NCBI GenBank assembly: GCA_030018315.1
Contig: JASEGA010000006.1
Span: 1,271-65,270, forward strand
Direction of reading: 5' to 3'
Length of the DNA: 64,000 bases
From: a bacterium
GTDB taxonomy: Bacteria > Hydrothermota > UBA3073 > JACQXS01 > JAGMCI01
Made by a program: the position numbers and the translations under genes. A model generated the notes under the pieces. That model saw only the letters and a list, made by a program, of their open reading frames with translations. It had not been told where the DNA came from and searched no databases. Below, piece by piece: positions 3,380-25,010 of this stretch. Every line of letters begins with the position of its first letter. Position 1 is the stretch's first letter.

Positions 3380-4730
3380 TCACATTCTAAATACTCCAAA
3401 CTTATGGTCCGGAATAGGTGCATTAAGGGACATTGAGATGCCTAACCCAAGCACTGTCCTTGTATCAACTGGGTCAATTATTCCATCATCCCATAGCCTG
3501 GCAGTTGAATAATAAGCACTGGATTGCTCCTCATACTCTCTTAATATAGGCTCACGCAGTTTTTCTCTCTCCTCATCAGTCAATTCCTTACCCTCTTTTT
3601 TAAGTGCTTCTATCTTCACATCTAAAAGAACATCAGCTGCCTGCTCACCACCCATCACACATATTTTAGCATTCGGCCACATCCATAATAACCTCGGTTC
3701 ATATGCTCTGCCACACATCCCATAGTTGCCTGCCCCATAAGAGCCACCTATAATAACTGTAAACTTGGGCACATCTGCATTAGCGACTGCATGCACCATC
3801 TTAGCACCATCTTTGGCTATACCTTGATGCTCATACTTTTTACCTACAATAAAGCCAGTTATATTTTGTAAGAAAACAATATGCTGGCTCGCCAGGCTCT
3901 AAGCGCTCAAGGTCAAACTTCTTTGGTAGAGGTAGATTCTGGACAATATTTCTTGTTATCTCCAAAGCATGCTCATCATTAACCGCATAGTGGTCAGTAA
4001 CACCCGAAATCCGACAGTGAACATCAGCACCACCAAGCTCCTCAACAGTTACTACCTCACCAGTAGCCGCCTTAACAAGCGGCGGCCCCCCAATATAAAT
4101 TGTGCCCTCCTCTTTTACAATAACTACTTCATCACTCATCGCCGGCTGATATGCACCGCCAGCAGTACAGAAGCCCATAACTGCTGAAATCTGTGGTATG
4201 TTCATTGCCGACATGCGTGCCTGATTGTAAAAGATACGTCCAAAGTGGTATTTATCAGGAAAAGTGCCTGCCTGTAATGGTAAAAATATTCCACCCGAAT
4301 CTACGAGATATATACAGGGGAGCCTATTCTCCATCGCAATCTCTTGCGCTCGTATATGTTTTTTAATAGTCTCAGGCACATAAGTGCCACCCTTAACAGT
4401 GGCATCGTGTGCAACTACCATAACTTCTCTGCCATGAACTACACCTATTCCTGTAACTATACCTGCACATGGGTGCTCGTTGTTATACATACCACAACTC
4501 GCAAGTGGTGATAATTCAAGGAATGGTGTATTTGGGTCAAAAAGTAGTTTCAGCCTATCCCTGACAAACAGCTTACCACGTGCCTTATGCTTCTCATGCA
4601 TCTTAGAGGGCCCACCTTTTTTAACCTCAGAAAGCCGTTCCTTTAACTCCTTAACAAGCGACTTCAGGTGCTCCTTGTTTTCATTAAACTCTGAACTATT
4701 TGAATTTATCTTTGACTCTATCTTATACAT
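3380..4730 (-). pseudogene. methylcrotonyl-CoA carboxylase beta / acyl-CoA carboxyltransferase, disrupted by an internal deletion plus frameshift
   Basis: The N-terminal piece (3840-4730) matches the carboxyltransferase N-domain up to ...[11 protein letters not shown]. The C-terminal piece is open from 3899 in another frame ([38 protein letters not shown]...GIFRM). About 65-75 residues of the conserved YGIV...RNIP segment are missing between the pieces, and the junction is not a homopolymer. An intact paralog lies at 25769-27319. Confidence 0.75.
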
Positions 4731-4868
4731 AGCAACTCCCTGTTAAATTACAACATTAAATAAGTTTTTACTCAACGAAGTAGTAATTTAACTTACTCTA
4801 AACCAATCTGCTAAACCCACTGTAGTCAATGGGACTAAAATATCCGCTATCATACTTAAACTAATACT

Positions 4869-4917
4869 ACCTTATACCCGTAGTATAAAATACCTGTTTT
4901 ACCTTCCTCTTGAATCT
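4869..4917. repeat. 49-bp direct repeat (left copy), a duplicated 3' end of the DUF35 gene
   Basis: 41/49 identical to 5687-5735 inside the DUF35 CDS. Reverse-complement translation gives KIQEEGKTGILYYGYKVVLV*, versus KIQEEGKTGILCYGYKAVLK* in the gene. Confidence 0.65.
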
Positions 4918-4947
4918 TCCCATTATATCACCTTAATCTCTCTGCTT

Positions 4948-5280
4948 TCATCTTTCATAAATTATCTCCCCCCCTTTAGCATATTGAGAAATGGGAGAAA
5001 CACCTTTTTTGAAATCTTCTGGCGACATAGTAATGATGTCGAGTGGAATTAAAAATTTATCCATTAACTTCCATTCTATATCTCCTAACATCCTTGCTCT
5101 TTCAAATATTCCTTTGCCACTAAAACTTTTGGAGATTATAACTATGTCAATATCGCTATCTCCTCTGTAATTCCCTCTCGCATAGGAACCGAATAAAATT
5201 ATCTTATCTATCTCAAACCCACTGTTTTCTAATAGATTTTTCAAATACCCTATTATTTTTTCAATCTTTTCTTTAGCCAT
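4948..5280 (-). CDS. minimal nucleotidyltransferase (MntA-like antitoxin)
   Basis: ILFGSYARGNYRGDSDIDIVIIS, a GSxxxG...DxD motif. Confidence 0.85.
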   Translation of the reverse strand: MAKEKIEKIIGYLKNLLENSGFEIDKIILFGSYARGNYRGDSDIDIVIISKSFSGKGIFERARMLGDIEWKLMDKFLIPLDIITMSPEDFKKGVSPISQYAKGGEIIYER

Positions 5281-5648
5281 TTTAATATCTCCTTAGTGTT
5301 TTTGAGAATATCGTTCACTTTTTGTTTATTATATTCTTTTAACAAAACTCTCAATTCTTCGGGATATCTTGTAGGAATGCTAACACGATTAAGTTCTGTG
5401 ACAAACTCTTTTAAGTTATCTGGAAGTGATAGTTCTATCTTTTTAACCAAATAAATAAGGTTATGAACTTTTGGTGGGAGCTCGTTTAATTTCTGAGTAT
5501 ACAATCCTTTCAACGCTTTCTCAATAGATAAATGGCACATAAAAACTGTATAAATATATCTGCCTGTCTTAAACATTGCTTCCGCTGTTTCTACATCATA
5601 CTCAGCCTGCTTAAACCACTCATTAGGCAGTTTTAATTTTTTACCCAT
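5253..5648 (-). CDS. HEPN domain protein (HepT-like toxin)
   Basis: 131 aa with helical HEPN architecture; it overlaps the MNT partner. Confidence 0.75.
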   Translation of the reverse strand: MGKKLKLPNEWFKQAEYDVETAEAMFKTGRYIYTVFMCHLSIEKALKGLYTQKLNELPPKVHNLIYLVKKIELSLPDNLKEFVTELNRVSIPTRYPEELRVLLKEYNKQKVNDILKNTKEILKWLKKRLKK

Positions 5649-5672
5649 TATTTTAGCTAACTCAATTAGAAC

Positions 5673-6062
5673 CTACTTCAATACCGCCTTATACCCATAG
5701 CACAGGATACCGGTCTTACCTTCCTCTTGAATTTTACGAAATACAAGTTTCACTTTCTTGCCAATTTCAACAGCTTCTGGCTTACAATCTACAACTTGTG
5801 TCGTCAATCGGACACCATCGTTTGTCTCAATTACTGCAATAACATAAGGTATCTGAGTTGCAAATTGCTCAGGTGCCACTCTGACTACTGTAAAAGTAAC
5901 TATTTTACCTTCATCACTTAACTGCACAGTTTCAAACTCTTTTGACCTACATTTAGGGCAAATAAGACGGGGTGGAAAAAGTATCTTACCGCATTTCTTG
6001 CATTTACCTGCCTCTAATCTATATCTTTGCGGTATCTCTCTTGTATATCTTGGTGATGGCAT
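5673..6062 (-). CDS. DUF35 Zn-ribbon/OB-fold protein, the third subunit of the archaeal-type thiolase/HMG-CoA synthase complex
   Basis: CKKCGKILFPPRLICPKCRS zinc ribbon followed by an OB fold. It sits directly downstream of the thiolase. Confidence 0.85.
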   Translation of the reverse strand: MPSPRYTREIPQRYRLEAGKCKKCGKILFPPRLICPKCRSKEFETVQLSDEGKIVTFTVVRVAPEQFATQIPYVIAVIETNDGVRLTTQVVDCKPEAVEIGKKVKLVFRKIQEEGKTGILCYGYKAVLK

Positions 6063-7213: not shown

Positions 7214-7546
7214 TTACCTTCTTTCTACTCCGCTACCTTCAAAAAAGTATTCTGGGTATCTTAGTTCCGTAGCATAGATAGTGAGTTCGTGAACTCTAAA
7301 GTCTCGTAACTTATCGAAATCTATATCAATTTCTTTGCATAAATTAATTATTTCAGATAAGTCATGAGTTTTTCTAAAAATCTTTCGGTGAAACACAAGG
7401 TATGCTTTGAGATACTTCTCAATGCATTGTTGACAATGAAAACAGATTGTATCAGTAGCAGGTTCTTGAGTATTTATTTCGTCTCGGGCAACTTTTAAGT
7501 CATTTTCCGCCTTCTTTATCCATTTCTTAACATCCTCTTCTTTCAT
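7214..7546 (-). CDS. HEPN domain protein
   Basis: 110 aa with an R-x4-H signature (RKTHDL) and HEPN helices. Confidence 0.8.
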
Positions 7547-7731
7547 ATCTCTACCCCTTCTTTATGTGCGAAAAATGAAATACAACCAATACTGTTTTTA
7601 TTAAGGAAATCCCAATCACTGCCTTGGTTGTAATCGCCTCTTGCCATACTGCCGAAAAGAATGATTTTTACTATTTCTAAGCCGTTTGTTTCTATCACTT
7701 TCCTAATTACTTTTACAGCAGTTTCTAACAT
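7543..7731 (-). CDS. minimal nucleotidyltransferase (short, possibly degraded MntA)
   Basis: ILFGSMARGDYNQGSDWDFL; only 62 aa; 4-bp overlap with the HEPN gene. Confidence 0.55.
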   Translation of the reverse strand: MLETAVKVIRKVIETNGLEIVKIILFGSMARGDYNQGSDWDFLNKNSIGCISFFAHKEGVEI

Positions 7732-8799: not shown

Positions 8800-8809
8800 T
8801 TTATTTATT

Positions 8810-9195
8810 TTACTCTAATTTTATCATTTCAAGATAATTTTTCAACTTCTCAACAAAATTCTTTGCTGTTTCTAACAAATCTTTAGCTTTTTCTTTAGTA
8901 AATGTAAAACCTCCACTATAATCTCCAACAACTCTCTTATCATAGGCGTCATTAAGTGCTTTTCCCAAATCTTTTTCAAAAATTCCTGTTTTTACAAAAT
9001 GCTCACCAAACAAACTTATCACGCCTTTATGGGAGGAGGCACTCAAACCTTTAGGAAGAAGCACCGCTTCCGCCATAAAAACATTGCATAATAACACCTG
9101 GAAGCACAGGAATCATAATCCTCAATATTTGAAGTATGTTCGGCTGTGATTAGGAATTTCTCTGCTTTTTCTATAGGATCTCTTATTTCTTTCAA
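8810..9195 (-). CDS. HEPN domain protein, with an apparent 1-bp frameshift in a T5/A5 run (~9077-9081)
   Basis: The track ORF 8810-9097 is the C-terminal part. The N-terminal part (KEIRDPIEKAEKFLITAEHTSNIEDYDSCASRCYYAMF) is open in a neighbouring frame from a TTG at 9195. T6 instead of T5 would restore one ORF. Confidence 0.6.
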
Positions 9196-9521: not shown

Positions 9522-9582
9522 CTCTTAGCAGGGTTCAGTATACCATTTTATTCCAATTTTATCATTTGTCAAAAGAAAATTT

Positions 9583-9610
9583 CTTGACTTTTATAAAATA
9601 GTTAGTAAAG
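9583..9610 (+). promoter_or_regulatory. candidate sigma70 promoter (TTGACT / TAAAGT) for the Kelch-repeat gene
   Basis: TTGACT at 9583-9588; a TAAAGT-like -10 about 16-17 nt downstream. Confidence 0.35.
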
Positions 9611-10975: not shown

Positions 10976-11563
10976 TTAGGCGGATTTACCGTATCTATCT
11001 TTATACACAAATGTAGATAGTTCCTTCCTCAGCGGTGGCTCCGGATATTCAGCCGGATAGCCGACTGGCATAAGCTCAACTACAGCAATACCATCTGGGA
11101 CACCAAGTATTTTAGCTGCCTCTTTTGCATCAAATGCACCTACATGGACTGTACCAAGTCCATATGAATATGCGGCAAGTGTCAGATTTTGCAGTGCTAA
11201 TGCGACATCAAACATAAACCAGTCCCCTTTATCTGTCCTCGGCTCACCTTTATAGAAGCCAGCCTTCTTAAGCTCGGCACAAGCTACAAGAACAACAGGT
11301 GCCTCAACAATACCGGGACGGGCAGGATTACGCTCAGATAAAGTAGTAACAAGCCTCTCCTTTACTGATTTATCTCTTACTACAATAAACTCCCAGCACT
11401 GAGTATTTGCCCATGAAGGTGCCCAACGAGCAGCTTCAAGTAACTCATTTAGTAAATTATCAGCAATATCATCAGGCTTATACTTCCTTATACTACGCCG
11501 CTTCTTAATTGCTTGCATTACATCTCCACAGGTCATACGACCCGTATGGAATCCTTCGGACAT
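10976..11563 (-). CDS. nitroreductase family protein; the N-terminal 14 codons derive from an inserted mini-element
   Basis: MSEGFHTGRMTCGDV then MQAIKKRRSIRKY, a paralog of 687-1244. The true start may be the internal ATG (MQAIKK), which has a GGAG RBS inside the element. Confidence 0.85.
   Translation of the reverse strand: MSEGFHTGRMTCGDVMQAIKKRRSIRKYKPDDIADNLLNELLEAARWAPSWANTQCWEFIVVRDKSVKERLVTTLSERNPARPGIVEAPVVLVACAELKKAGFYKGEPRTDKGDWFMFDVALALQNLTLAAYSYGLGTVHVGAFDAKEAAKILGVPDGIAVVELMPVGYPAEYPEPPLRKELSTFVYKDRYGKSA
11524..11560. repeat. family-A miniature palindromic element, long form (ctccacaggTCATACGACCCGTATGGaatccttcgga)
   Basis: Near-identical to 14253-14288. It contains the palindrome AGGATCC(T) split by a nested hairpin CATACG-ACC-CGTATG. 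Confidence 0.8.
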
Positions 11564-11575
11564 AATCCCTCCTTA

Positions 11576-11607
11576 AACTTTTAGACTTTTAGACTATTAG
11601 ACTTTTA
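11576..11607 (-). promoter_or_regulatory. TTTTAGACT motif site F2, upstream of nitroreductase 10976-11563
   Basis: aacttttagacttttagactattagacttttaa. Confidence 0.5.
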
Positions 11608-11609
11608 AT

Positions 11610-12017
11610 TTACTTCTCACATAGCTCAATAAGTACACCATGAACAGCACTCGGGTGCAAGAATGCCACCTTCTTAGTAAATGCACCCTTACTTGGTACT
11701 TCGTCTATTAATTTAATACCCTTAGATTTAAGCTCAGTTAATACTTTTTCAATATCTTTGACTTCAAAGCATAAATGATGTAACCCCTCCCCTTTCTTTT
11801 CTAAAAACTTCGCTATTGGACTATCCTCTCCTATAGGTTCAATAAGTTCAATCTTAACGCTACCTGCATCTCCACAGGATCCTTCGGAAAGCACAGCAAC
11901 CTTAACCTTCCGATAATCTACTTTAGCAAACTTCTCAACTTTAAGTCCAAAAGAAGCCCAAATCTTAATCCTATCCTCAATACTCCTCACCGCTATCCCA
12001 ATATGGTCAAGTTTCAT
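11610..12017 (-). CDS. methylmalonyl-CoA epimerase / VOC (glyoxalase-fold) protein
   Basis: 135 aa; MKLDHIGIAV...HHLCFEV...HGVLIELCE. It carries the short family-A insert (LSEGSCGDAG). Confidence 0.7.
   Translation of the reverse strand: MKLDHIGIAVRSIEDRIKIWASFGLKVEKFAKVDYRKVKVAVLSEGSCGDAGSVKIELIEPIGEDSPIAKFLEKKGEGLHHLCFEVKDIEKVLTELKSKGIKLIDEVPSKGAFTKKVAFLHPSAVHGVLIELCEK
11869..11889. repeat. family-A element, short form (ctccacaggatccttcggaa), in frame inside the epimerase CDS
   Basis: Same sequence as the arms of the long form but without the nested hairpin. Confidence 0.75.
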
Positions 12018-12029
12018 CTTTCACCTATC

Positions 12030-12086
12030 GTAGGGGTTTGATTTATCAAACCCAAACTTATTGGGCACGATAAATCGTACCCCTAC
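12030..12086. repeat. large imperfect inverted repeat (GTAGGGGTTTGATTTATC ... GATAAATCGTACCCCTAC)
   Basis: Arms of 18 nt with 2 mismatches. The core resembles the GGGGTTTGATTAATCAAACCCC palindrome found in the T9SS CTD copies. Confidence 0.5.
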
Positions 12087-12126: not shown

Positions 12127-13437
12127 CTATAGCAATTTTCTTTTCTTTGCTTCCTCTTCAAGCCATGGCCTAAACTTTGGGTGTGCTACTTTAATTAAGG
12201 ACTCAGCACGCTCTCTTAAGTTTTTGCCATGTAAGTATGCGACTCCATACTCTGTAACCACATAATGGACATCCGCCCTTGTTGTTACCACTCCTGCACC
12301 TAACTTAAGTGATGATACAATCCTTGATACTTCACCCCCTTTAGCTGTTGATTGTAATGCAATTATAGGCTTACCACCTTTGGATTGAGCCGCACCACGA
12401 ATAAAATCTACTTGACCACCAAACCCAGAATATATCTTAACCCCAATTGAGTCTGCACAGACCTGACCCGTCAAGTCTACTTCAATAGCAGAGTTTATTG
12501 CAACCATCCTTTCATTTTGTGATATTATAAACGGATGGTTTGTATAATTTGCGGGATGTAGTTCAAATACAGGATTATTATGTGCATATCCATATGCTCG
12601 TTTTGACCCCAATATAAAAGTAGCAATTACTTTGTAAGGGTGTAAAGTCTTCTTTGCACCAGTTATTATTCCAGCTTCAATAGCCTCTATTATACTGTCA
12701 GATACCATCTCAGTATGTATACCGAGGTCTCTTTTATCTTTCATTGCCTTAAGGGCAGCATTTGGGATACCACCTATACCAAGCTGAAGTGTGGAACCAT
12801 CCTCTACAAGGTCTGCTATATGAGCGCCTATACTCTTCTCTGTATCAGTTAACTCTTTTACAACTAATTCGGGTAACTCCTCTGAGACTTCCACAATTTT
12901 ATCCACCTGAGACACATGAATAAACGAATCACCAAGTGTCCTCGGCATCTTATCATTAACCTGTGCTACCACAAGATTAGCAGTCTCAGCCGCCGCCTTA
13001 GATGCTAAACACTCAACTCCAAAACTCATAAATCCATGCTCGTCAGGAGGTGAAAGATGCAAAAGGGCAACATCAGGTTTCATAGCACCTGAGTAAAACA
13101 GGTCCGGTATCTCGTATAAGAATACAGGAATATAGTCAGCACGCCCCTCATTTACTACTTTCCTATCTGCAGGTCCGACAAAAAGTGAGTTGTGTCTAAA
13201 GTGACCTTCCATATCAGGCTTTGAAAGCGGGTCTTCACCAAGCAAAAGGACATGGGTTATCTCAACATCATATAGCTTATCTTTACGCTCGGCGAGTGCA
13301 TCCAGCAACTTTAATGGAGTAGCTGCATTCCCACTTATGTACACACAGTCGCCACTCTTTATCACAGAGACTGCCTCTTCAACAGAGACAAGCTTCTTCT
13401 TGTAATCGTCAAACCAGCTTGAGGTCGCACCTCTCAT
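12127..13437 (-). CDS. acetyl-CoA hydrolase/transferase family CoA-transferase (4-hydroxybutyrate / succinyl-CoA:acetate CoA-transferase-like)
   Basis: 436 aa with conserved N- and C-terminal CoA-transferase family I-like blocks (GDCVYISGNAATP...; ...SGFGGQVDFIRGA). Confidence 0.85.
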   Translation of the reverse strand: MRGATSSWFDDYKKKLVSVEEAVSVIKSGDCVYISGNAATPLKLLDALAERKDKLYDVEITHVLLLGEDPLSKPDMEGHFRHNSLFVGPADRKVVNEGRADYIPVFLYEIPDLFYSGAMKPDVALLHLSPPDEHGFMSFGVECLASKAAAETANLVVAQVNDKMPRTLGDSFIHVSQVDKIVEVSEELPELVVKELTDTEKSIGAHIADLVEDGSTLQLGIGGIPNAALKAMKDKRDLGIHTEMVSDSIIEAIEAGIITGAKKTLHPYKVIATFILGSKRAYGYAHNNPVFELHPANYTNHPFIISQNERMVAINSAIEVDLTGQVCADSIGVKIYSGFGGQVDFIRGAAQSKGGKPIIALQSTAKGGEVSRIVSSLKLGAGVVTTRADVHYVVTEYGVAYLHGKNLRERAESLIKVAHPKFRPWLEEEAKKRKLL

Positions 13438-14555
13438 TTTATGTACTCCTTCTTTATACTTCCTTTATAAATATAAACCCCTCTATTAAGAGCCGAATCC
13501 TCTTTTAACGCTTTATCTATTCCAAACTTAACTATATTCTTAAGGTATGGAAGAATTGCCCCGGTTAGCGCATGAGTTGAAGTCCTCGCTACAAGTGTTG
13601 GCGTATTAGGCATACAGAAGTGGATTACACCTTCCACTGTATACACAAATTTGCCAGCCGGTGCAAGCTTAGCTGTCTCAACACACCCACCTTGGTCTAT
13701 GTCAAAATCTATAATTACCGCTCCTTTCTTCATAGATTTGACCATATCTTTAGACACAAGGATAGGTGTCCTTTCACCGACCACAAAGACTGCACCTATC
13801 AAAACATTGGCAAATTTGACAAGTTTCTCTATGTTATACTTGGTAGCAAAAAGTGTAGTCACCTTGTGTTCCATATGACAAGCAATATCTTCCAACTTGT
13901 CACGACTTATGTCCATCACATATACATTAGCACCAAGACCGGCAAGACTCTTAGCTGCATTACAACCTAATGTGCCACCACCAAATATGACAACCTCAGC
14001 CGGTGGGACACCGGGTATGCCACCAAGCAAGATGCCACGCCCACCACTTGAGGACTCAAGAAGCCTTCCCGCTATCTGCGGTGCAAGCTTACCTGCTATC
14101 TCACTCATCGGGATAAGGACTGGAAGCTTACCATCATCCTTCTGAATTATCTCATAACCAATAATTGTAGTCTTTTTATTAATAAGCACATCTATCAGTG
14201 CTTTTGGGGCAGCTACAAGATTAAAAAAGCCCATTATAACTTTACCTTCATCTCCACAGGTCATACGACCCGTATGGGATCCTTCGGAAATAATTTTATA
14301 CTCCAACTCTTGCGGCTCCCTCACTTTAACGATTATTTCAGCCCTCTTATAGACCTCGTCTTTAGAATACACAATCTTAGCACCTACAGTCTCATAATCA
14401 ACATCTGTAAACCCAACACCAGAACCAGCACCACTCTCAACATAAACAGTTGTGCCAAGCTCAATAAGCTCCCTCACGCCCATGGGAGAGAGTCCTACCC
14501 GATACTCTGGTATATCCTTAAATATAGGCAACTCCTTCGGTACCCCTATAATCAT
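13434..14555 (-). CDS. alanine dehydrogenase, carrying an in-frame 14-17-aa insertion from a family-A element
   Basis: MIIGVPKE...VKVREP ... PMSEIAG ... GGGTLGCNAAK (Rossmann) ... IDQGG. The extra SEGSHTGRMTCGDEGKV lies between conserved blocks, compared with Bacillus Ald. Confidence 0.85.
   Translation of the reverse strand: MIIGVPKELPIFKDIPEYRVGLSPMGVRELIELGTTVYVESGAGSGVGFTDVDYETVGAKIVYSKDEVYKRAEIIVKVREPQELEYKIISEGSHTGRMTCGDEGKVIMGFFNLVAAPKALIDVLINKKTTIIGYEIIQKDDGKLPVLIPMSEIAGKLAPQIAGRLLESSSGGRGILLGGIPGVPPAEVVIFGGGTLGCNAAKSLAGLGANVYVMDISRDKLEDIACHMEHKVTTLFATKYNIEKLVKFANVLIGAVFVVGERTPILVSKDMVKSMKKGAVIIDFDIDQGGCVETAKLAPAGKFVYTVEGVIHFCMPNTPTLVARTSTHALTGAILPYLKNIVKFGIDKALKEDSALNRGVYIYKGSIKKEYIK
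14253..14288. repeat. family-A element, long form, in frame inside alanine dehydrogenase
   Basis: ctccacaggtcatacgacccgtatgggatccttcgga, identical at all but 1-2 positions to 11524-11560. Confidence 0.8.
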
Positions 14556-14577
14556 TTAAACCTCCTCACCACTTTAT

Positions 14578-14608
14578 GACTTTTAGTCTATTACACTTTT
14601 AGATTTCC
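14578..14608 (-). promoter_or_regulatory. TTTTAGACT motif site F3, upstream of alanine dehydrogenase
   Basis: gacttttagtctattacacttttagatttcc. Confidence 0.5.
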
Positions 14609-14647
14609 TTATTAAAAATCAAACCTGACACCAAAGATTCTCATTAA

Positions 14648-17620
14648 TCATGCCATCGCTTCTAACATCTTTTCAATGTTATCAAACCAATATTGTTTAT
14701 ACTCAGTAAGAGCTTTCGAAACGTCCTCTGGTCTTAGGAGCAATTTTATTCTGACTTTGAATCCGTTGTGATTAAAAACCCTTTCTTCTCCGTTTTCCTC
14801 GAATAATGCTTTATACCCATCAATTTTCCTGTAAGCACTTGTATGTTCTGTCCCCTTTGGATCAACAAAAACAATAAAGTAGTTATCTCCTTTCTTTAAC
14901 CAGAAAATAAAATCTGGGTAAAATCTGCTGATTTTATTCACATTAGGATTATAATACGGAATATAAATTTCGTCTAAACTTTCATCCAATTTGCTAAACA
15001 ACCACCAATCGAACATTTTAAATTTGTTAGCATTTTTAACTAAATAATTTTCCAAATCATTAATGAACTTTACCTCGCTTGAAGTCTTGATAACGTGCTT
15101 GATGTAATCTATCTTTTCGTCATCAGACAGTATAAGTGGAAGGTAGTAATGATTAGCAATGTACTTAATTCTCAGTTGTTTACTTTGATACTCTACTCTT
15201 TCCTCTCTGACCATCCGAGCAGATTCCTTGATACCTTCCGTGTATTGTTCTAAAGTAATTTCCCTACGCCCGTATTTCTCCTTCAACTCTCTTTCCAATA
15301 CAGAGGGGTCTTTGAATTGGCGGATAGCTTCAATTTTCTTTTGTATTTCGTTGATATCTTTCAAATACACCCTGATATTCTTAAAATGTTTTATCTCTTT
15401 CTCTAATTCTTTAAGCCCTTCAAATTCCTCTGGAACGACACTGAGGTAATCAAAAAATCTTTGAATAAGCAAATCTACATTTTTAAAACCTTTTTCACCA
15501 AACTTAAAATTGCTTTGATTATTCAATCTCCTTCTTAAAAGTTCTATTTTTATGGGTTCTGTGTTATATCTCATCAAGAATACTCTGTCATCTGGGACAA
15601 ACTCATTAAATTTATTAAGTACCTCAAAATCCTTAGTGGAAATCTCAAACTTTATTGGTTCTTCGGTCTTCAAAAGAGGATAATTTGCTGATTTGTATGT
15701 TGGCACCAGCAATTTATGTTTTCGAGCCTCATCATTCACAAAGAGAGAAAGTTGAGCCTCCCCCTCTCTTTTTCTTTCTCTCTCCAACTCCTGAACTACT
15801 TTAGCTAAAGCACTCCTGTTTGTTGCAAAAATAAATAGAGTTTCTATTGGTAAGACTTTATTTTTGATTTTGTTGAATAACTCCTCCCCATCTATCTCCT
15901 TTGCATTGTAAACTTGTAATAACCTCTTTCTTTTGTCCCTTATTGGTTCAATTCTTACTCCTCTCCCAACAGATTGTAAAATAAATTTTTTTGCATCCTC
16001 TCCCATTCCTATATTGATAAAATTGATTACATTGGGTCTATTAGAATCCCACCCTTCATAAAAACCACGAGAGCCCATCAAGATATTGATCTCAGAATTT
16101 TCTCTATTCAAATTTTCAAAATAACTTTCATCTTCAAATCTTTCTTGAACTTCGTATCCTGCAAGTTTTTCTTTTAGCCATCCTGATATATCACCTATTT
16201 TTATCAATGCAAAATGTTTATCGCTTGTCTTTAACTTAAACGCCAGCTCCTTCTTATTGGATGGTCTTCTTAAGATTTCAATTTCTCCACCTGATTTTGA
16301 GTTGTAAACATAGTTCAAAATATCTTCTTTTGTAATGTTTTTAAAAATTGTTTCGTCTATTTTTATTTTCCTGCCATCTTCAAATATAAACTCAGGCTCT
16401 TGCTTTAACTCATCCCATAGTTCGTTAAGAGCATTCTTAAAAACTTCTTGTTCAATCTCTTGTTTTCCAATTTTTTCAAGTTCTCTAAAAAACAGCTTTA
16501 GGTCAGCATCTTCCTTATTAACAGAGTTGACAAGGGTCAAAAGCAATGGCTTATGATATAAATCTGATCGGATATTCTTAATATCTTCATAAAATTTTTT
16601 CACATAAGTCAGAAGGATTAATGATTTTAAGACTATCTTCTGCTTCTCATCACCGCTATAATCTTCCTCATTTCTAAATGCCCTTATTTCTTGCTTTAAA
16701 ATAGTAATGTGCTTTCCGTATCCAGAATTTATAAAACTTGATAGGTTAAATTCAAAAGCACATGTGATAACATCTCTTGGGTCTATAAAGGTTGCTGAGG
16801 AATTAAATAGAAACCCCTGTCTTGATAGGATGGAATAAATATGCTGTCTTTTTGACTCTTCCTTATCTCCTTTATGTGCCTCATCGAGAAAAATATACCA
16901 TTTCCCATCGTTGTCGTAATTTTTGAAGTCTATAATTTTTTCTTTCTGCTCATCACTTAAGTTATCTGAGCGGTAATAAAATACGGTAATCCCGAATAAT
17001 GTTGGTTGTCTTTTAACCTCAGGATAATCTTTGAGCTCTTTTAGAATTATTCTGGGTTCGTTTACATAGTTGAATTCATCTACATGGTGTTTAAGTTGCC
17101 CTATTAAGTCGTCCCTGTGAGTTAAAATTAGAATATCGTATAGTGGAATTTCTTTTCTTTTAATTAACTCTGCTAAAATTTGGATAAGTTTAATGATAAC
17201 AAGGCTCTTTCCACTTCCTGTTGCCATCCAAAAACACATCCGATTGATAAGATGCTCATAAGGGATTTTCCCATCTTCTCGAGGATAATATCCTGTAAGA
17301 AGGTTATAGATGTTCCTTTTCCTCTTATCTAACTTAATATCTAAATTTTCATCTAATCCATTATCTTTATACCAGTTGAAAAACTTTTGTTTTCTTTCTT
17401 GATAGATTTCTAATCTTTCACCGTCTTGATAATCTACAAAATCTTCAAAATACTTCCAGATAACCTTTACAGCATTTTTAACTGCCTCTTGCTGATAATC
17501 CCAGAGTTTCTTGTTCTTGGAAAAACTCTCCAAATCAAAAGAATTCCAGTTAGCAGGTAAATCTTCAAATCTTAAATCTTCAATTATGTCCTGTAAGAAT
17601 ATTCTTACCATTTTTACCAC
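14648..17620 (-). CDS. Type III restriction enzyme Res subunit (SF2 helicase plus C-terminal PD-(D/E)xK nuclease)
   Basis: 990 aa with Walker A MATGSGKS, DEAH box FLDEAHKGD, a helicase C-domain, and a C-terminal VFVDPKG motif. The start overlaps the Mod stop. Confidence 0.8.
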   Translation of the reverse strand: MVKMVRIFLQDIIEDLRFEDLPANWNSFDLESFSKNKKLWDYQQEAVKNAVKVIWKYFEDFVDYQDGERLEIYQERKQKFFNWYKDNGLDENLDIKLDKRKRNIYNLLTGYYPREDGKIPYEHLINRMCFWMATGSGKSLVIIKLIQILAELIKRKEIPLYDILILTHRDDLIGQLKHHVDEFNYVNEPRIILKELKDYPEVKRQPTLFGITVFYYRSDNLSDEQKEKIIDFKNYDNDGKWYIFLDEAHKGDKEESKRQHIYSILSRQGFLFNSSATFIDPRDVITCAFEFNLSSFINSGYGKHITILKQEIRAFRNEEDYSGDEKQKIVLKSLILLTYVKKFYEDIKNIRSDLYHKPLLLTLVNSVNKEDADLKLFFRELEKIGKQEIEQEVFKNALNELWDELKQEPEFIFEDGRKIKIDETIFKNITKEDILNYVYNSKSGGEIEILRRPSNKKELAFKLKTSDKHFALIKIGDISGWLKEKLAGYEVQERFEDESYFENLNRENSEINILMGSRGFYEGWDSNRPNVINFINIGMGEDAKKFILQSVGRGVRIEPIRDKRKRLLQVYNAKEIDGEELFNKIKNKVLPIETLFIFATNRSALAKVVQELERERKREGEAQLSLFVNDEARKHKLLVPTYKSANYPLLKTEEPIKFEISTKDFEVLNKFNEFVPDDRVFLMRYNTEPIKIELLRRRLNNQSNFKFGEKGFKNVDLLIQRFFDYLSVVPEEFEGLKELEKEIKHFKNIRVYLKDINEIQKKIEAIRQFKDPSVLERELKEKYGRREITLEQYTEGIKESARMVREERVEYQSKQLRIKYIANHYYLPLILSDDEKIDYIKHVIKTSSEVKFINDLENYLVKNANKFKMFDWWLFSKLDESLDEIYIPYYNPNVNKISRFYPDFIFWLKKGDNYFIVFVDPKGTEHTSAYRKIDGYKALFEENGEERVFNHNGFKVRIKLLLRPEDVSKALTEYKQYWFDNIEKMLEAMA

Positions 17621-20210
17621 CAGATTAAAGGTTTAATGAGTTTGTAATCTAAATTTTTAAGGTCTATTTTTTCTCCATCCTCAAATTCCACTTCATCAGC
17701 AGATATTCTCTTTATCCACTTTCCTAAAATGTTAGAAAGTGTCTCTGGAACGTCTATGTTTGGATAAAGTTTTGATAAATCCACCTTTACTTTATTATTC
17801 TCATAATCTATTTCTAACGCAGAAAGCATTTTCAAATCCCGCATAAAAACATATTGATTGTATGGGTCTTCATAAGGATTTTCAAATAAATCTGAATCCT
17901 CATATTTCGCTCTCCTTAAAGTATCCTCGTATTGCTCAAGTTCGTAGTATTTGAAAAATCCTCCACCTTGCCAGTTTACTTCTTTGGAGATACCACAAGG
18001 TTCATGATTGCCTTTACCTGCCAACACTTCTTTCATTCTCGGAAGAATAGTATCATAAAAATAGTTGCCCATTTCAATCCCAAGCCATTTCCCCCTAACT
18101 TTTGCATTACTGCGGTGGTCGTTCCAGAACCCAGGAAAAAGTCCAATATTAAATTTCGTTTTTCGTAATTCGATAGCTCCATTACTTTATTAATAAATGC
18201 TTCGGGTTTTTTACCGCTTCCAAAATAAGCAGGACCTTCATATCCAGTTCTATTGAATTCATTAACCATATCAAAATAGTTTGGATAAGGTATCTCTTTG
18301 ATTTCACGTTTATTTACTGGAATCCCTTGAAAATAATCACCATTGTTCCTTTTTGATGACTTATCAGGGATACAAAAATAACGGTAACCTAATCCATCAT
18401 TTCCCATCTCATGAACTTTAAATAAGTAACCTCTATAATTTTCAAAATTCGGTTCGAGATACTTTACATAAAATCTCCCACTAGAATTCCCTTGTCGAAT
18501 AGACCCTCGTATATTGATTCTTTTTAGCTGTTTTTCGCCTGGATTTAGCTGTACAAATTCATATGAACCAGGTTTAAATACCTCCACTTTTTTACTGCTG
18601 AAATTCAGAACTAAATCTGCTCTCTTTTGTTCTTTTACTTGCCAAATGTATTCATTTATTGATGTATTCTCCTTTTTTATTTTTTTAATCATATGATTTT
18701 TACTTTTTCTATAATATAAAAGATTCTCTACAACTTCATGGACTTCCTTGTCACCTTTCAGTATTCTTTCTTCATGTCTAACTTTAATAACAAAATTTGC
18801 CAGGTAATTAGCGTCAGTAAATACCATATCTGTAATATGCTTTAAGTTATAAAGTTCATTTTCATTAATACTTACACAGATATTTCCTGTATCTCTTAGA
18901 AATTCTTTTGCCATTTGTAGCCTATTTAATATCATTGTTAGCCAAGTAGAATGTTGAAACTTGTCTTTATAAATAAATTCATCACTGCCAGTATTATAAG
19001 GCGGGTCAATGTAAATCGTCTGCACCTTTTCTTTAAACTTCGGCAAGATCGTTTGCAATGCTTGATAGTTTTCGCTTTTTATCAGCCAGCCATCTAAGGC
19101 GTTATCTAAATCGTCAAACAAGCCTAAAATTTCAAGTTCTAAATCCTTAAAGTATTTTGTATCAATTGGCAGATGCTGGTATTTAGAATTTAGAGATTCT
19201 TCGCTATCGCTCAGAATGTCAGAAGAGGCGAAGTTATCAGCCACAATCCCTAATTCTTTCCAATCTTTTACCTGTTCATTAAAGTTCTTGTGATTTAATA
19301 TTTTCTCTACAACTTCAATGCTTTTATCTGCTATCTTATCCAGAGTTATCACATAGTTTGAGTTTAAAGCAAACTTTGGCTTATTCCAGATTTTTACAAG
19401 CTCGTCTTCAAATTGAGAAATAAAATTAATTATCTTAAATGCTATATCTTTTAAGGTTTGTAATTGTTTTATCCTTTCTTCTGTCCAATCGCTTTCACCA
19501 GAGAAAACATACTGATAAAGCCAGATATTAAATTGCTCTTTTAAAAATTCTTTTGCATTTTTGTTGATGAAAAAATCTACCTCGCTCTGCTTCTCAAAAA
19601 CTCTAAAAGCATTCTCTAATATATCATCCGTTATTCTTATCCCTTCTTTCTTTAATGTCTTCAAAATCTCATCAATTTTTGTTATCTTACCTCGCTCAGA
19701 ATAAGAAACATTGAAAACAATTATCCCATCATTCCTTTTCTTTTTAAATTCAAAAATTATCTCTTTTTTCTCAAAGGCTTTCTTATGCTCTAATCGTGAG
19801 ACATCAAAGAAGAATTTGAAACCGTCTATTTCTACTTCCAGATTTTTAAACAACCTATCAGTTTTGACATAATAAAGCATATGCGTTTTCCAGAAGAGCA
19901 TCGTATCTTTATCATCGGTATATACATTCTCATAGACATTTTGATGAATTGGGGTATATCTAAAATAAATAGAACCGCTTTCTGAAAAATAACGATTGAA
20001 GAAGGTGTAGAGTTTATCAAAAAGCTCTTCTCTAAATCCTGGAAACGGATTTAATGCCTCTTCTAAGTCCTTTTGAAGTTTTGGAAAGATACCTTTTTCA
20101 TAGTATCTTGATTTAATCCTCATCAAATTGATGTATCCAGATTCTCCTTCTACCTTTGCACCTACAAAGATGTCTTTTAATGCGTTATAGAATTTTTCTT
20201 CCTTAGTCAT
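17614..20210 (-). CDS. Type III R-M Mod N6-adenine DNA methyltransferase, with an apparent 1-bp frameshift in a G5/C5 run (18091-18095)
   Basis: DPPY motif IV (YIDPPYNTGSDEF) precedes the FFLGSGTT AdoMet motif, i.e. beta-class order. The track splits it into 18033-20210 and 17614-18072; G6 instead of G5 would read ...KLGGKWLGIEMGNYFYD... continuously. Confidence 0.8.
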
Positions 20211-22577: not shown

Positions 22578-22605
22578 GAAAGTCTAAAAGTTCTTAACTT
22601 TTGAG
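22578..22605 (-). promoter_or_regulatory. AGTCTAAAAG motif site F4 (inverted orientation), between the four-helix gene and the MCM start
   Basis: gaaagtctaaaagttcttaacttttgag. Confidence 0.4.
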
Positions 22606-22946
22606 ATTAACACATTTAACATTTTTATTATTTCATTTAACAAAGCTATCTGGTCTCTCACTATACTCTTATCAAGAAAACTAACCTCCCTACATTTAAT
22701 ATACCAATCTCGACTCTCGGTAGCTTCCCCTTTTGCCACTCCTAAGTGATAACTAAATTCTTTACGACTTTTTCTACCAAACTCCTCTGCTATGTTAGCA
22801 CTGATAGAACCGACAGCTGATATAAGTTGATTAGCAATTATCTTTGCCGCAACAGTTGCTGGAAACTTCTCAACATCTTTAACAGCAAGGGCAAACAGTT
22901 CCACAGCCTTCTGCTAGACAACTAAGTCCTGAAACTTTCTCACCCT
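22584..22946 (-). CDS. four-helix-bundle protein (PF05635 / 23S rRNA-IVS family), with an in-frame TAG at the conserved Trp codon
   Basis: The upstream extension reads [23 protein letters not shown]...; the family consensus is LxVWQKA, so TGG appears changed to TAG. The track ORF restarts at a CTG at 22904. Confidence 0.55.
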
Positions 22947-22952
22947 CTCCAT

Positions 22953-22980
22953 ACTTTTAGACTCTTAGACTCTTATTCTA
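22953..22980 (-). promoter_or_regulatory. TTTTAGACT motif site F5, upstream of the four-helix-bundle gene
   Basis: acttttagactcttagactcttattcta. Confidence 0.5.
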
Positions 22981-23467
22981 TTATTACTAATGTATCGCCC
23001 CCATTTACCGTCATCCCCTGTTTGACAAGTACCTGCTTAACAAGCCCATCTCTTGGTGCCTTCATCTCATTTTGCATCTTCATCGCCTCAACTATCAAAA
23101 GACCACTACCCGCTTTTACTGTATCACCTGGCTTTACCCCTACTTCTATAACTAACCCTGGCATGGGAGCAGTGACCTTAACTTCACCAACATGAGTAAT
23201 CTCAGGCTTGAGTTTAGTGAGTGCTTGTACTTGCTCATCCTCAACACTTACCTTGAATCTCTCACCATCTACCGAAATAGTATTCTCATCCTCAATAATA
23301 ACATCATACGACTTGTTATCAACTATCAGTGATAAATGTGAATTACTGCCAACCTCCACAACAGTAGCTTTCATAGGCTTGTTATCTATATAAACTTTGA
23401 ATCCATTACCTTCTTTTTCTAACTCAACTTTGAACTCCTTATCATCAACTTTAGCAATATATGCCAT
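22973..23467 (-). CDS. biotin carboxyl carrier / biotinyl-domain subunit
   Basis: C-terminal EAMKM biotinylation motif (VEAMKMQNEM) plus a ~90-aa N-terminal extension. Confidence 0.85.
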   Translation of the reverse strand: MAYIAKVDDKEFKVELEKEGNGFKVYIDNKPMKATVVEVGSNSHLSLIVDNKSYDVIIEDENTISVDGERFKVSVEDEQVQALTKLKPEITHVGEVKVTAPMPGLVIEVGVKPGDTVKAGSGLLIVEAMKMQNEMKAPRDGLVKQVLVKQGMTVNGGDTLVIIE

Positions 23468-23480
23468 TTATACTGTCTTA

Positions 23481-23511
23481 CTTTTAGACTATTAGACTTT
23501 TAGTCTATTAT
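23481..23511 (-). promoter_or_regulatory. TTTTAGACT motif site F6, upstream of the biotin carrier gene
   Basis: acttttagactattagacttttagtctatta. Confidence 0.5.
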
Positions 23512-25010
23512 CACATCTTTCTCAATTCTGCCTGCCTCGCTGCAAACTTCCATGCACTGTAACGGGATTCGGATACTTTTGGGATAACTGAAACTTTCTT
23601 CTCTTTTAATGTCATCGCAATGGTTGCCCCTATAGCGGCAATGGGCTGGTTTGTCTTCTTTAATTCTGTGCTACCAAGCATCTTATCTACAAATGTTGTA
23701 TTATACTCACCACTTATAAAATATTGATTATTCATTACAAGCTGATGAAATGGTATACTTGTCTTAATCCCTATTATCTTATATTCAGAGAGTGCTCTCC
23801 TCATCCTTGATATAGATTCATCTCTCGTAGGTGCCCATACAAGTAACTTTGCAATCAACGGGTCATAAAACATAGGAACTTCAAATCCAGCAAATACTCC
23901 ACTATCTACTCTAACACCAGGTCCATTAGGCTCTATTAACTCAACTATTTTACCAGTTGATGGCATAAAGTTATTATCCGGGTCCTCAGCAGTTATCCTG
24001 CACTCTATAGCTGCACCTGATAATTTTACATCCTCTTGCTTAATTGATAGACGCTCACCTGCTGCTATCTTAAGCTGCTCCTTTACAATATCTATTCCGG
24101 TGACAAGCTCAGTTACAGGATGCTCAACCTGTAGCCTTGTATTCATCTCAAGGAAGTAGAAGTTCCTGTCTTTGTCTACCATAAACTCAACTGTCCCCGC
24201 ATTTGTATAACCTGACGCCTTAACTGCCTTGACTGCAGCAGCACCCATCTTAGCTCTAAGCTCTTTAGTCATCAAAGGTGAAGGCGACTCCTCTACTAAC
24301 TTCTGATACCTACGCTGAATAGAACACTCACGCTCACATAGATGGACTGCATTCCCATAGTTATCGGCAAGTATTTGAAACTCTATATGACGAGGAGAGT
24401 CAAGATACTTCTCAATATATATTGTTGGATTACCAAATGCAGACTTGGCTTCTGACATCGCTTGCTTCATAGCTGGCTTAAGCTCAGACTCAGACTTCAC
24501 TACCCTCATCCCTTTGCCACCACCACCAGCAGCCGCTTTTATAAGAACAGGAAAACCTACTTCATTCACAACCTTAATGGCTTCAGCTTCACTTGTAAGC
24601 CCTTTACTGGAACCGGGAGTCACAGGCACTTTAGCTTTAGTTATCGTCTTCCTTGCTTCAATTTTATCACCAAGTAGCCTTATAGCTTTGGAGTTGGGAC
24701 CAATGAATATTATATTATGAGACTCACAAGCCTCTGCAAAATATTCGTTTTCAGCTAGAAAACCATAACCTGGATGAATAGCGTCAGCATCCGTCTTCTT
24801 AGCTACTTCTATAATCTTGTCTATCTTAAGGTAGCTCTCAGCTGCAGGTGCCGGCCCTATCTCATATGCCTCATCTGCATACCTTGTATGCAATGCACTC
24901 CTGTCAGCTTCTGAATAAACTGTAGCTGTAAGTATACCAAGCTCCTTACACGCCCTAAGTACCCTTATTGCAATCTCACCACGATTCGCTACTAAAACCT
25001 TCCTAATCAT
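23511..25010 (-). CDS. biotin carboxylase subunit (acetyl/propionyl-CoA carboxylase or pyruvate carboxylase A-type)
   Basis: 499 aa; MIRKVLVANRGEIAIRV..., an ATP-grasp fold, GGGGKGMR. Confidence 0.92.
   Translation of the reverse strand: MIRKVLVANRGEIAIRVLRACKELGILTATVYSEADRSALHTRYADEAYEIGPAPAAESYLKIDKIIEVAKKTDADAIHPGYGFLAENEYFAEACESHNIIFIGPNSKAIRLLGDKIEARKTITKAKVPVTPGSSKGLTSEAEAIKVVNEVGFPVLIKAAAGGGGKGMRVVKSESELKPAMKQAMSEAKSAFGNPTIYIEKYLDSPRHIEFQILADNYGNAVHLCERECSIQRRYQKLVEESPSPLMTKELRAKMGAAAVKAVKASGYTNAGTVEFMVDKDRNFYFLEMNTRLQVEHPVTELVTGIDIVKEQLKIAAGERLSIKQEDVKLSGAAIECRITAEDPDNNFMPSTGKIVELIEPNGPGVRVDSGVFAGFEVPMFYDPLIAKLLVWAPTRDESISRMRRALSEYKIIGIKTSIPFHQLVMNNQYFISGEYNTTFVDKMLGSTELKKTNQPIAAIGATIAMTLKEKKVSVIPKVSESRYSAWKFAARQAELRKM

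Follow-up and report, generated by a model that had tools for sequence, protein, structure and literature searches.

The DUF35 gene in the stretch of DNA analysed here (the window, 64,000 nucleotides) has its 3' end present twice, with a two-gene HEPN/MNT cassette between the two copies. We posit that the cassette came with the end of a foreign DUF35 gene, through recombination over a short homology and one illegitimate junction, and we hold this to be, on balance, the probable course of events. In our best reading, the event is a C-terminal displacement or additive integration, and neither a target-site duplication nor the capture of an integron cassette; the trace that it has left is genuine, but of a fairly ordinary sort for horizontal transfer, and it points to no new kind of system. 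Although toxin-antitoxin (TA) pairs have a name for mobility, one seldom sees how two such genes, lacking a recombinase and terminal repeats, come to lie between the genes of an operon that remains intact; in this case, the scar has been preserved.

A repeat search returned a direct repeat of 56 nt (4863-4918 and 5680-5735, spacing 817) in which 46 of the 56 positions are identical (82%). The earlier note on this DNA had reported 49 nt of it (4869-4917 and 5687-5735); the location stands, whilst the 84% identity given becomes 82% on recounting (40/49), and the translations given for both copies are confirmed on the minus strand. In frame, the similarity extends to 63 nt (4856-4918 and 5673-5735, minus strand), and both copies encode the last 20 codons of DUF35 plus a stop, which they share in position. 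The copy that forms the active end of the gene, U (5673-5735, containing the stretch AAGACCGGTATCCTGTGCTATGGGTATAAGGCGG), encodes KIQEEGKTGILCYGYKAVLK and a TAG stop at 5673-5675; the other, D (4856-4918), encodes KIQEEGKTGILYYGYKVVLV and a TAA stop at 4856-4858. Local alignment of the flanks scored 62, against 18.3±2.3 in shuffles (shuffle maximum 29-34), and the homology stops at 4918/5735 without further extension. Within it, a 17-nt block, ATTCAAGAGGAAGGTAA, is identical in U (5716-5732) and D (4899-4915). All but one of the differences between the copies lie 3' of this block, and a shift in GC3 begins there too; from the alignments of both copies, the block at 5716-5732 on the minus strand is the candidate crossover point.

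The DUF35 gene itself (5673-6062, minus strand; zinc-ribbon plus OB-fold, PF12172 and PF01796) is intact and encodes a protein of 129 aa ending in CYGYKAVLK; about 240 homologues share 60-83% identity with it. The next gene after DUF35 is the carboxyltransferase gene in about 160 related loci (including L002-L011 and L082-L110), mostly at gaps of 14-190 nt and with no HEPN/MNT genes in between, and we therefore conclude that the pair was inserted. This syntenic comparison supports the earlier proposal that the pair was inserted where the HMGCS-thiolase-DUF35 unit ends. To call that unit a mevalonate module is imprecise, as the neighbouring genes encode a carboxyltransferase, an enoyl-CoA hydratase, a biotin carboxylase and BCCP, and suggest a cluster of the HMG-CoA / methylcrotonyl-CoA type. 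None of the roughly 160 DUF35 loci contains a HEPN1-type pair or a duplicated DUF35 end; L018 and L111 have a different MNT/HEPN-like pair at the DUF35-carboxyltransferase junction, without a repeat. The ancestral downstream neighbour is still found in the window as a carboxyltransferase pseudogene (3380-4730, minus strand; PF01039) with an internal deletion of ~85 codons and a frameshift at 3879/3880; in tblastn with the L002 orthologue, residues 285-369 are absent and the frame changes. Between this pseudogene and D lies the native DUF35-to-carboxyltransferase spacer (4731-4855, minus strand), whose 125 nt fall inside the range of the relatives, and which has degenerate copies of the host genome's own octamer motif (TTTAGAC/GTCTAAA type).

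A direct join of the DUF35 body, …GTATTTCGT, to the D-type end, AAGATTCAAGAGGAAGGTAAAACAGG…, would give the hypothetical empty-site allele. Neither such a D-type allele nor a donor in which DUF35 with the AVLK end precedes HEPN and MNT was found close enough in the databases searched, which also counts against our best reading: a contig search for a close relative or donor returned the same contig only, scans for the empty-site allele or the donor gave best identities of 84% for HMGCS (genome contigs) and 81% for DUF35 (metagenomes), and in a search of 5.8 billion proteins with the reconstructed D-type DUF35 the next best was 83% identical.

The two gene ends differ in their codon use. Beyond the identical block, on its 3' side (5673-5715), U has a foreign composition: GC3 of U is 0.55, against 0.25 in the other 108 codons of DUF35, and its 10 G/C-ending codons are reached by only 0.44% of host 15-codon windows. 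Its sequence (AAG ACC GGT ATC CTG TGC ... AAG TAG) uses codons that are rare in the host (ACC 6%, ATC 8%, CTG 6%, GCG 11%, TTG 11%), which places U at the 4.7th percentile among host 20-codon windows; a GC3 scan inside DUF35 alone, however, gives a permutation p of only 0.07, which counts against our best reading. The codon use of D, on the other hand, is typical of the host (69th percentile), and its tail, LV followed by the stop, is the commonest among 120 homologues (V at the end in 52 of the 120). D has Tyr in place of a Cys that is conserved in 110 of these 120 homologues, none of which has Tyr there, and Val in place of an Ala that is found in 99; these two changes at conserved residues are consistent with decay after displacement. 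They are also the only non-synonymous differences between the copies, the remaining nine being synonymous. The two ends thus look like divergent alleles, each with a history as coding sequence, as is seen from the synonymous excess, the position of the stop and the contrast in codons. From these features we infer that D is the native end of the resident gene, now displaced and non-functional, and U an imported one. Polarisation of the differences by hand with two outgroups (L083 and L089) met with saturation of synonymous sites at that distance.

The earlier note had considered that the fragment could belong to a longer, degraded second DUF35 gene. This is not the case: homology ends at 4918, the reading frame of D is closed three codons upstream, and phmmer with DUF35 against all ORFs found the gene itself only.

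If our reading is correct, ~800 bp of foreign DNA would have been added, pushing the 63-nt original end of the resident DUF35 downstream. The incoming piece would have comprised ~40 nt from the very end of a diverged DUF35 gene, the HEPN-MNT pair and 29 nt of trailing sequence; one junction would have been formed by recombination within the 17-nt identity, and the other, at 4918/4919, would be illegitimate. If the fragment was linear, homology-facilitated illegitimate recombination could have given this product; if it had been circularised, Campbell-type single-crossover integration could. By either route, DUF35 would remain intact with a surrogate end (...AVLK and stop), and the old end and native spacer would still precede the carboxyltransferase gene. 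The fragment found downstream of the incoming module, with homology to the 3' end of the resident gene, is what C-terminal displacement predicts. Two further aspects count against this reading. The cassette is AT-rich (GC3 0.30) while U is GC3-rich, and this unlike composition calls for an extra assumption, namely that the cassette was recent in the donor; moreover, for RecA-dependent recombination, 17 nt is a short anchor.

The earlier note had offered two mechanisms, recombination with a homologous gene end and duplication of the target; the first is favoured over the second because of the synonymous excess, and because host-rare codons are found in the active end and host-typical ones in the fragment. 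In a target duplication, ~57 nt would have been copied in situ by a transposition-like, staggered-cut or template-switch event, after which the downstream copy decayed neutrally whilst the upstream one was kept by selection. We consider this unlikely, even though it fits several observations: the two copies border the insert exactly, the last codon and stop of U (AAG TAG) could come from the insert, the two conserved residues that are changed in D are what decay would leave, and 8 of the 10 core differences are G/C in U and A/T in D, the direction of AT-biased decay. However, 9 of the 11 differences are synonymous where neutral decay predicts about 25-30%; simulated neutral decay yielded a mean of 2.2-3.2 synonymous differences out of 10, with P≤0.0014 for at least 8. 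Were U also to have changed synonymously after an in-situ duplication, a rough binomial estimate would put the excess at only about p=0.007-0.03; this, and the fact that all of these statistics are based on just 57-63 nt, count against our best reading. The host-atypical codons, too, are in the selected copy and not in the decaying one. Furthermore, the insert has no transposase and, at 4919-4947 / 5649-5672, no terminal inverted repeats, so it fails as an insertion sequence or transposon; no such duplication occurs in nine other contexts of these cassette families. Finally, 57 nt is far in excess of the target duplications that are known for transposases.

A further possibility is a miniature site-specific element with a 17-nt att core, mobilised by a tyrosine or serine recombinase encoded elsewhere (CIME- or satellite-like), or else the stump of a larger island. 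In such a case, the hypothetical excised or circular form would have …GATATAATGGG joined to AAGATTC…GGTAAGACCGG, with a junction of …ATAATGGG to AAGATTC… closed on …GGTAA. The layout certainly resembles prophages, ICEs, islands and CIMEs at gene 3' ends, where an element-borne surrogate end restores the gene and the original is displaced to the far side. The direct repeats with their short identical core, immediately after which the differences start, are reminiscent of imperfect attL/attR sites, and intact target and displaced end are both present. Elsewhere, L047 has three copies of a gene end between successive inserts, which resembles tandem accretion, and in L193 a cassette of the HEPN3 family adjoins an integrase fragment. 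Unlike such integrative elements, however, the unit in the window measures ~0.8 kb, with no recombinase in it or in the 64 kb around it, and about 160 other DUF35 loci show no recurrence of it at this target. Where the cassette is found elsewhere, its copies have no common sequence beyond the two ORFs. In L075, the start of the downstream gene has been duplicated as well, which recombination of a flank-carrying fragment fits better than a fixed att site. Overall, we regard a site-specific element as a doubtful explanation.

The integron- or gene-cassette-like behaviour suggested earlier finds no support. TA pairs are common integron cargo, and the likeness is real in that this is a small, promoter-poor unit in the orientation of its neighbours with repeats at its borders; but the bordering repeat is the end of a coding gene and not an attC, and there is no IntI or attI. 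The regions 4845-4950 and 5650-5745, folded as single-stranded DNA on both strands, gave no significant attC-like hairpin (MFE -3.0 to -4.5 kcal/mol, z-scores -1.64 to +0.03), and a repeat search found no inverted repeats within either copy. Pfam searches of the 62 window ORFs of at least 90 aa returned no IntI/Phage_integrase, other recombinase or transposase. A diversity-generating retroelement was also rejected, with no RVT domain in the window and only 6 of the 11 differences at A in D. Rfam gave no match in the whole window at the gathering threshold, and just a spurious lncRNA match in L185 (700-2250) at E≤1.

Last and least, a chimeric contig, in which strains with and without the cassette were joined at their common DUF35 end, is very improbable: the source is a metagenome-assembled genome, the copies resemble two alleles and several neighbouring genes have frameshifts, but an independent Logan assembly (L001, SRR23186779) agrees with the window base for base across 9,984 nt, the longest common identity (17 nt) is below usual assembly k-mers, 4918/4919 joins cassette-side sequence to the middle of a codon series and not at a repeat boundary, and like structures occur in independent assemblies of other studies (L047, L049 and L075).

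Flanking duplication, which the earlier note suggested looking for around other HEPN-MNT pairs, is no general feature of these cassettes: it is found in none of nine other contexts, seven of the HEPN1 family (L162, L172, L175, L177, L179, L181 and L184) and two of the HEPN3 family (L185 and L193). In the window, flank alignment detected no duplication around pair 2 or the pair at 2068-2759. A second related footprint does exist there, where the 3' end of HEPN3 has a degenerate copy (9545-9590, minus strand; partner at 8807-8848) upstream of the MNT3-HEPN3 pair; its flank alignment scored 38 against 19±2.8 (z=6.7-7.8), and of the two copies it is the downstream one that encodes the native C-terminus of HEPN3 (...KLKNYLE...), common to homologues. 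Repeats of 44-46 nt flank this pair 3 and the second pair in L162; L163, taken as a candidate empty site for the latter, actually has an ISL3 insertion into that pair.

The architecture of a displaced end recurs in three unrelated loci, with largely synonymous divergence in two of the three: L075 has the ECH end three times and the BC start twice (14 synonymous : 6), L049 has the BCCP end twice (13 synonymous : 9), and L047 has the CT end three times around a Phd/ParE pair. The occurrence of this scar at three more loci, which belong to unrelated candidate phyla, suggests that the route has been used repeatedly. Could TA-type cassettes in uncultivated FCB-type lineages carry the end of a neighbouring gene as a portable attachment or homology site? 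Window pairs 1 and 3, L047, L075, L049 and the second pair of L162 would be the candidates, and we think the idea a long shot. If true, cassettes would enter between operon genes without harming them and accumulate in arrays split by gene-end copies, a general and previously undescribed route of TA mobility, possibly with a recombinase acting in trans.

Our preferred reading, homology-anchored integration, has precedents in rhs, CDI and T6SS effector-immunity loci; Kirchberger et al. (2017, PMC5361080, citing Jackson 2009, Poole 2011, and de Vries & Wackernagel 2002) explain the displaced 3' ends of such loci (C-terminal displacement, orphan arrays) by homology-facilitated illegitimate recombination. 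As in those loci, the module would enter through homology to the conserved part of a resident gene and provide a new 3' end, whilst the old one survives downstream as a fragment in which the homologous stretch can still be recognised, and repeated events would yield arrays such as those of L047 and L075. Unlike in those loci, the resident gene does not encode a polymorphic toxin but a housekeeping-type scaffold protein (DUF35), the peptide encoded by the new end is essentially unchanged and adds no toxin domain, a separate HEPN/MNT pair makes up the cargo, and the retained anchor is very short, at about 17 nt of identity. Taken together, the displaced native end, the codon-atypical surrogate end and the 17-nt block argue for homology-anchored additive integration from a diverged relative, as opposed to transposition or integron capture. 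With short in-frame duplicates of gene ends, insertions can be dated and oriented, and segments of metagenome-assembled genomes can be flagged as imported.

As for the cassette, the repeats do bracket exactly the HEPN and MNT pair, as had been claimed, and the interval has just two ORFs, overlapping by 28 nt. HEPN1 (5253-5648, minus strand; 131 aa, intact; PF05168, E=1.3e-25) is the presumed toxin, and MNT1 (4948-5280, minus strand; 110 aa; PF01909, E=4e-14, and PF18765), a minimal nucleotidyltransferase, the presumed antitoxin. COG2250/COG1708-type HEPN/MNT modules are TA systems predicted by Makarova et al. (2009, PMC2701414), who also note that such pairs have recently been inserted or deleted among close relatives; the pair in the window likewise has overlapping genes, a patchy distribution and near-identical copies in distant phyla. 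Proteins 73-82% identical to HEPN1 occur in Ratteibacteria, Nitrospirae and Nitrospinae MAGs, and the cassette is ~80% identical in nucleotides to copies in other phyla, with homology limited to the two ORFs. Judged by these sequence comparisons, it is horizontally mobile, and it may be a TA module with an addictive or defensive action, a property that would help to retain it.

The earlier label of MntA-HepT-like is loose. The HEPN and MNT domains are there, and MNT1 has the GS...DxD motif (GSx10DxD of the MntA family), GSYARGNYRGDSDIDI; against the NCBIfam MntA model (NF047752), however, it reaches 34.3 bits where the cutoff is 60, whereas a separate MNT at 62204-62614 passes with 98.7 bits. 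Unlike in type VII MntA-HepT (Yao et al. 2020, PMC7641770), HEPN1 is encoded upstream of MNT1 and its sequence lacks the Rx4-6H motif; we rejected an identity as type VII HepT (DUF86/HepT, Rx4-6H), as HEPN1 matches PF05168 only and no NCBIfam model. The cassette, for which no terminator is predicted, lies in the same orientation as the operon, 24 nt behind DUF35; the 24-nt spacer from the DUF35 stop to the HEPN1 start (5649-5672, minus strand) is part of the insert and is not conserved among other cassette copies. At the other side, the 29-nt spacer 3' of the MNT1 stop (4919-4947, minus strand), whose low end at 4918/4919 would be the novel junction, contains an outward-facing promoter-like site, ATGAAA-N18-TATAAT preceded by TG, which is a match to consensus only.

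The predicted toxin-antitoxin pair HEPN1-MNT1 stands between two copies of the DUF35 gene's 3′ end, as the earlier note had claimed: a direct-repeat search of the window returned 4863-4918 and 5680-5735 (56 nt, 82% identity, spacing 817), and local alignment of the flanks scored 62 against 18.3±2.3 for shuffles. The active 3′ end, U (5673-5735; KIQEEGKTGILCYGYKAVLK, stop TAG), and the fragment downstream of the cassette, D (4856-4918; KIQEEGKTGILYYGYKVVLV, stop TAA), both encode the DUF35 C-terminus in frame and share the position of the stop codon, and their alignment breaks off abruptly at 4918/5735. The interval is filled entirely by the two overlapping cassette ORFs and the spacers on either side of them, 24 nt next to U and 29 nt next to D. 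Since the frame of D is blocked three codons upstream, D is not a piece of the longer degraded DUF35 gene that the earlier note had allowed for.

The pair was inserted between DUF35 and the carboxyltransferase gene, as is supported by comparison with 80 genome loci (HMG-CoA synthase query) and 80 metagenome loci (DUF35 query). Throughout this set, DUF35 directly precedes the carboxyltransferase gene wherever the latter is present, mostly across gaps of 14-190 nt, none of which holds a HEPN or MNT gene; the 125 nt from the stop of D to the carboxyltransferase start match this native geometry. The same junctions host other small inserts in other lineages: a different MNT and HEPN-like pair in Cloacimonadota (L018, L111), four-helix-bundle genes of the 23S_rRNA_IVP type (L009, L018 and L083, the last being the closest relative), and a PIN-domain gene (L137). 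In the Zixibacteria locus L062, a 700-bp insert at this junction is bounded by a 54-nt self-complementary repeat (94%; 12660-12713 and 13360-13413).

Insertion could have duplicated the target, or the cassette could have come by recombination with a copy carrying a homologous gene end. Were D a duplicate of U, simulated neutral decay, run with and without AT bias and transition bias, would leave 2.2-3.2 of 10 differences synonymous (P(≥8)≤0.0014), whereas 9 of the 11 differing sites over 57 nt are synonymous and 2 non-synonymous; if U also gained synonymous changes of its own, the case is weaker, at a probability that we estimate as roughly 0.007-0.03. GC3 is 0.25 in the first 108 DUF35 codons, 0.30 in D and 0.55 in U, and the shift in GC3 and codon use starts directly 3′ of a 17-nt identical block (5716-5732 / 4899-4915). 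U uses ACC, ATC, CTG, GCG and TTG, each 6-11% of its codon family in 32 host genes; ranked against host windows of 20 codons, its codon use falls at the 4.7th percentile and that of D at the 69th, and the 10 G/C-ending codons of U are matched by only 0.44% of host 15-codon windows. Permutation of GC3 inside the DUF35 gene gives only p=0.07. Of 120 DUF35 homologues, 52 end in V and 3 in K; YGYK is preceded by Cys in 110 of them and by Tyr in none, and is followed by Ala in 99 and by Val in one. D retains the common LV tail before its stop, yet it is altered at two conserved positions, the pattern expected of a copy that no longer functions. Degenerate copies of the genome's own octamer motif lie in the spacer below D. 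Together, the synonymous excess and the codon data make two formerly functional alleles of a DUF35 end the simplest reading, in which U would have arrived with the cassette and D would be the resident end, since hit by two damaging changes.

Recombination with a homologous gene end is thus favoured over target duplication, on the 9:2 synonymous pattern and the codon contrast. The first junction would have formed at a short identity inside the DUF35 end, and the second, at 4918/4919, would be illegitimate; perhaps a linear fragment entered by homology-facilitated illegitimate recombination, or a circularised fragment integrated by a single crossover. The same logic has been put forward for rhs, CDI and T6SS effector-immunity loci, to account for their C-terminal displacement and orphan arrays (PMC5361080). 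Makarova et al. (PMC2701414) describe HEPN-MNT pairs as recently gained or lost between close relatives and offer no mechanism. The scar adds one more case to a known class of marks left by horizontal transfer; that it reflects a more general and undescribed route, in which a surrogate gene end travels with small cassettes as their entry site, we consider improbable. An assembly chimera is an unlikely source of the repeat, given that two assemblies are concordant and the shared identity is only 17 nt. The integron- or gene-cassette-like behaviour suggested earlier is rejected, as U and D do not fold like attC sites and the 64-kb window encodes no integrase, nor any transposase or reverse transcriptase; Rfam gave no matches, and the U/D differences are not adenine-specific, which discards a DGR origin.

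A short-range direct-repeat survey of 1.77 Mb of fetched loci found this architecture at three further loci, in phyla other than that of the window, where gene-end arrays part small inserts; these loci lend support to the proposed mechanism. In L075 (Coatesbacteria; 15314-17766), three enoyl-CoA hydratase ends and two biotin carboxylase starts surround a 244-aa ORF and an Mrr-like ORF, and one joint links a biotin carboxylase start to a hydratase end, as tandem or Campbell products typically do; copies 1 and 2 encode the same 35 residues despite 14 synonymous differences. L049 (11931-12664) has the BCCP end twice around a 116-aa ORF (13 synonymous : 9), and in L047 (6106-8694) three carboxyltransferase ends part a HicB-like-gene block from a Phd/YefM and ParE pair.

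Relatives of HEPN1, 73-82% identical, occur in MAGs labelled Ratteibacteria, Nitrospirae and Nitrospinae. Three such copies align with the window at about 80% DNA identity, and the homology runs only from near the HEPN start codon to the MNT stop codon, so that neither conserved ends nor inverted repeats nor att-like sequences accompany the cassette in this comparison. Other such pairs are also tightly wedged among co-oriented genes: 2 nt after chorismate synthase, between peptidase S55 and the next gene (gaps of 18 and 17 nt), or between oxoacid oxidoreductase ferredoxin and alpha subunits. The flanking duplication, which the earlier note had proposed seeking around other HEPN-MNT pairs, is absent from all nine other contexts, and is therefore an occasional outcome and not a cassette signature. 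HEPN1 and MNT1 overlap by 28 nt, both intact, in the orientation of DUF35 and 24 nt from it, with no minus-strand terminator predicted; a promoter-like sequence, TGATATAAT, lies at the outgoing end of the insert. The MntA-HepT-like label is loose: MNT1 has a GS…DxD motif but scores below the NCBIfam MntA cutoff, and HEPN1 (PF05168) lacks Rx4-6H, so that the two genes form a HEPN/MNT pair of the predicted-TA type and not a demonstrated MntA-HepT system.

By ORF calling and Pfam, all genes of the region lie on the minus strand: MNT3 (9521-9192), HEPN3 (9097-8810, frameshifted near 9090), HMG-CoA synthase (8799-7753), MNT2 (7731-7543, truncated to 62 aa), HEPN2 (7546-7214), thiolase (7211 to about 6063, 1-nt frameshift near 6385), DUF35 (6062-5673), HEPN1 (5648-5253), MNT1 (5280-4948), D, and the carboxyltransferase gene (4730-3380; internal loss of ~85 codons and a frameshift at 3879/3880). 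Judged from these lesions, the operon is in decay: thiolase, carboxyltransferase, MNT2 and HEPN3 are damaged and look like pseudogenes, and every lesion is reproduced in an independent Logan contig (L001, run SRR23186779), identical to the window across 9,984 nt. The window HMG-CoA synthase lacks the AAGGAGG ribosome-binding site present in all relatives.

Pair 3 (MNT3-HEPN3) is bounded by an imperfect direct repeat of 42-46 nt (8807-8848 / 9545-9590; score 38 versus 19±2.8, z about 7). Of its two copies, the downstream one is the native C-terminus of HEPN3 in an alignment of homologues, and the upstream one is a degenerate remnant that lies before MNT3 within sequence resembling a promoter (TTGACA-N16-TAAAAT). 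The second pair of L162 (MNT and HepT-like_2) has an analogous 44-nt repeat (86%; 3751-3794 / 4505-4548). Its core 18-mer, AAGTAGTTCGGTTATTTT, recurs exactly at L185 881-898, in an unrelated locus series (L185-L192). This series has an MNT-HEPN pair inserted into its oxoacid oxidoreductase operon, and the 18-mer stands at the border of the pair and an Mrr/FokI-like gene; it is a candidate for a conserved element of cassette borders, and has no Rfam match. Three further two-gene cassettes are wedged into window operons by tiny spacers: MNT2-HEPN2 (7214-7731) between HMG-CoA synthase and thiolase (21 and 2 nt); a 75-aa and 155-aa pair (2068-2759), the latter with a weak AbiEii match (E=7e-5), between DUF3795 and enoyl-CoA hydratase (12 and 3 nt); and, at 62204-62740, a bona fide MntA (98.7 bits) after fabZ, followed by a broken HepT-like ORF.

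Short spacers between co-oriented window genes hold 8-bp-periodic arrays, which read (A/T)AGTCTAA along the coding strand and lie immediately 5′ of ribosome-binding sites (1262-1294, 11573-11620, 14567-14614, 22949-22993, 23468-23523). Related genomes have arrays of equal period with lineage-specific octamers (L009 12382-12995, L018 12191-12995, L083 2360-2400 and the DUF35-carboxyltransferase spacers of L085/L091), often two and inverted, several flanking a 23S_rRNA_IVP/four-helix-bundle gene; the window carries a gene of this type at 22584-22904. A 46-nt segment containing a CATACG…CGTATG hairpin is present at two places (11521-11566, 14249-14294; 96% identical), one copy as an in-frame insert of ~15 residues in an alanine dehydrogenase-type gene (…SEGSHTGRMTCGD…), the other supplying codons 1-14 of a nitroreductase gene (MSEGFHTGRMTCGD…). 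Gene ends in the window also carry short hairpin repeats rich in G+C, which fall into two families, …GGGGCGGGGTAACCCCGCCCC… and GTAGGGGTTTGATTAATCAAACCCCTAC (58338-58390, 59853-59905, 60898-60950; 12030-12060, 25495-25525, 27763-27793), and are probably terminators or REP-like elements. Amid metabolic genes, a restriction-modification-like block (14648-20210) comprises a 990-aa ResIII/SNF2 helicase-type protein, a 152-aa ORF and a 725-aa N6/N4 DNA methylase.
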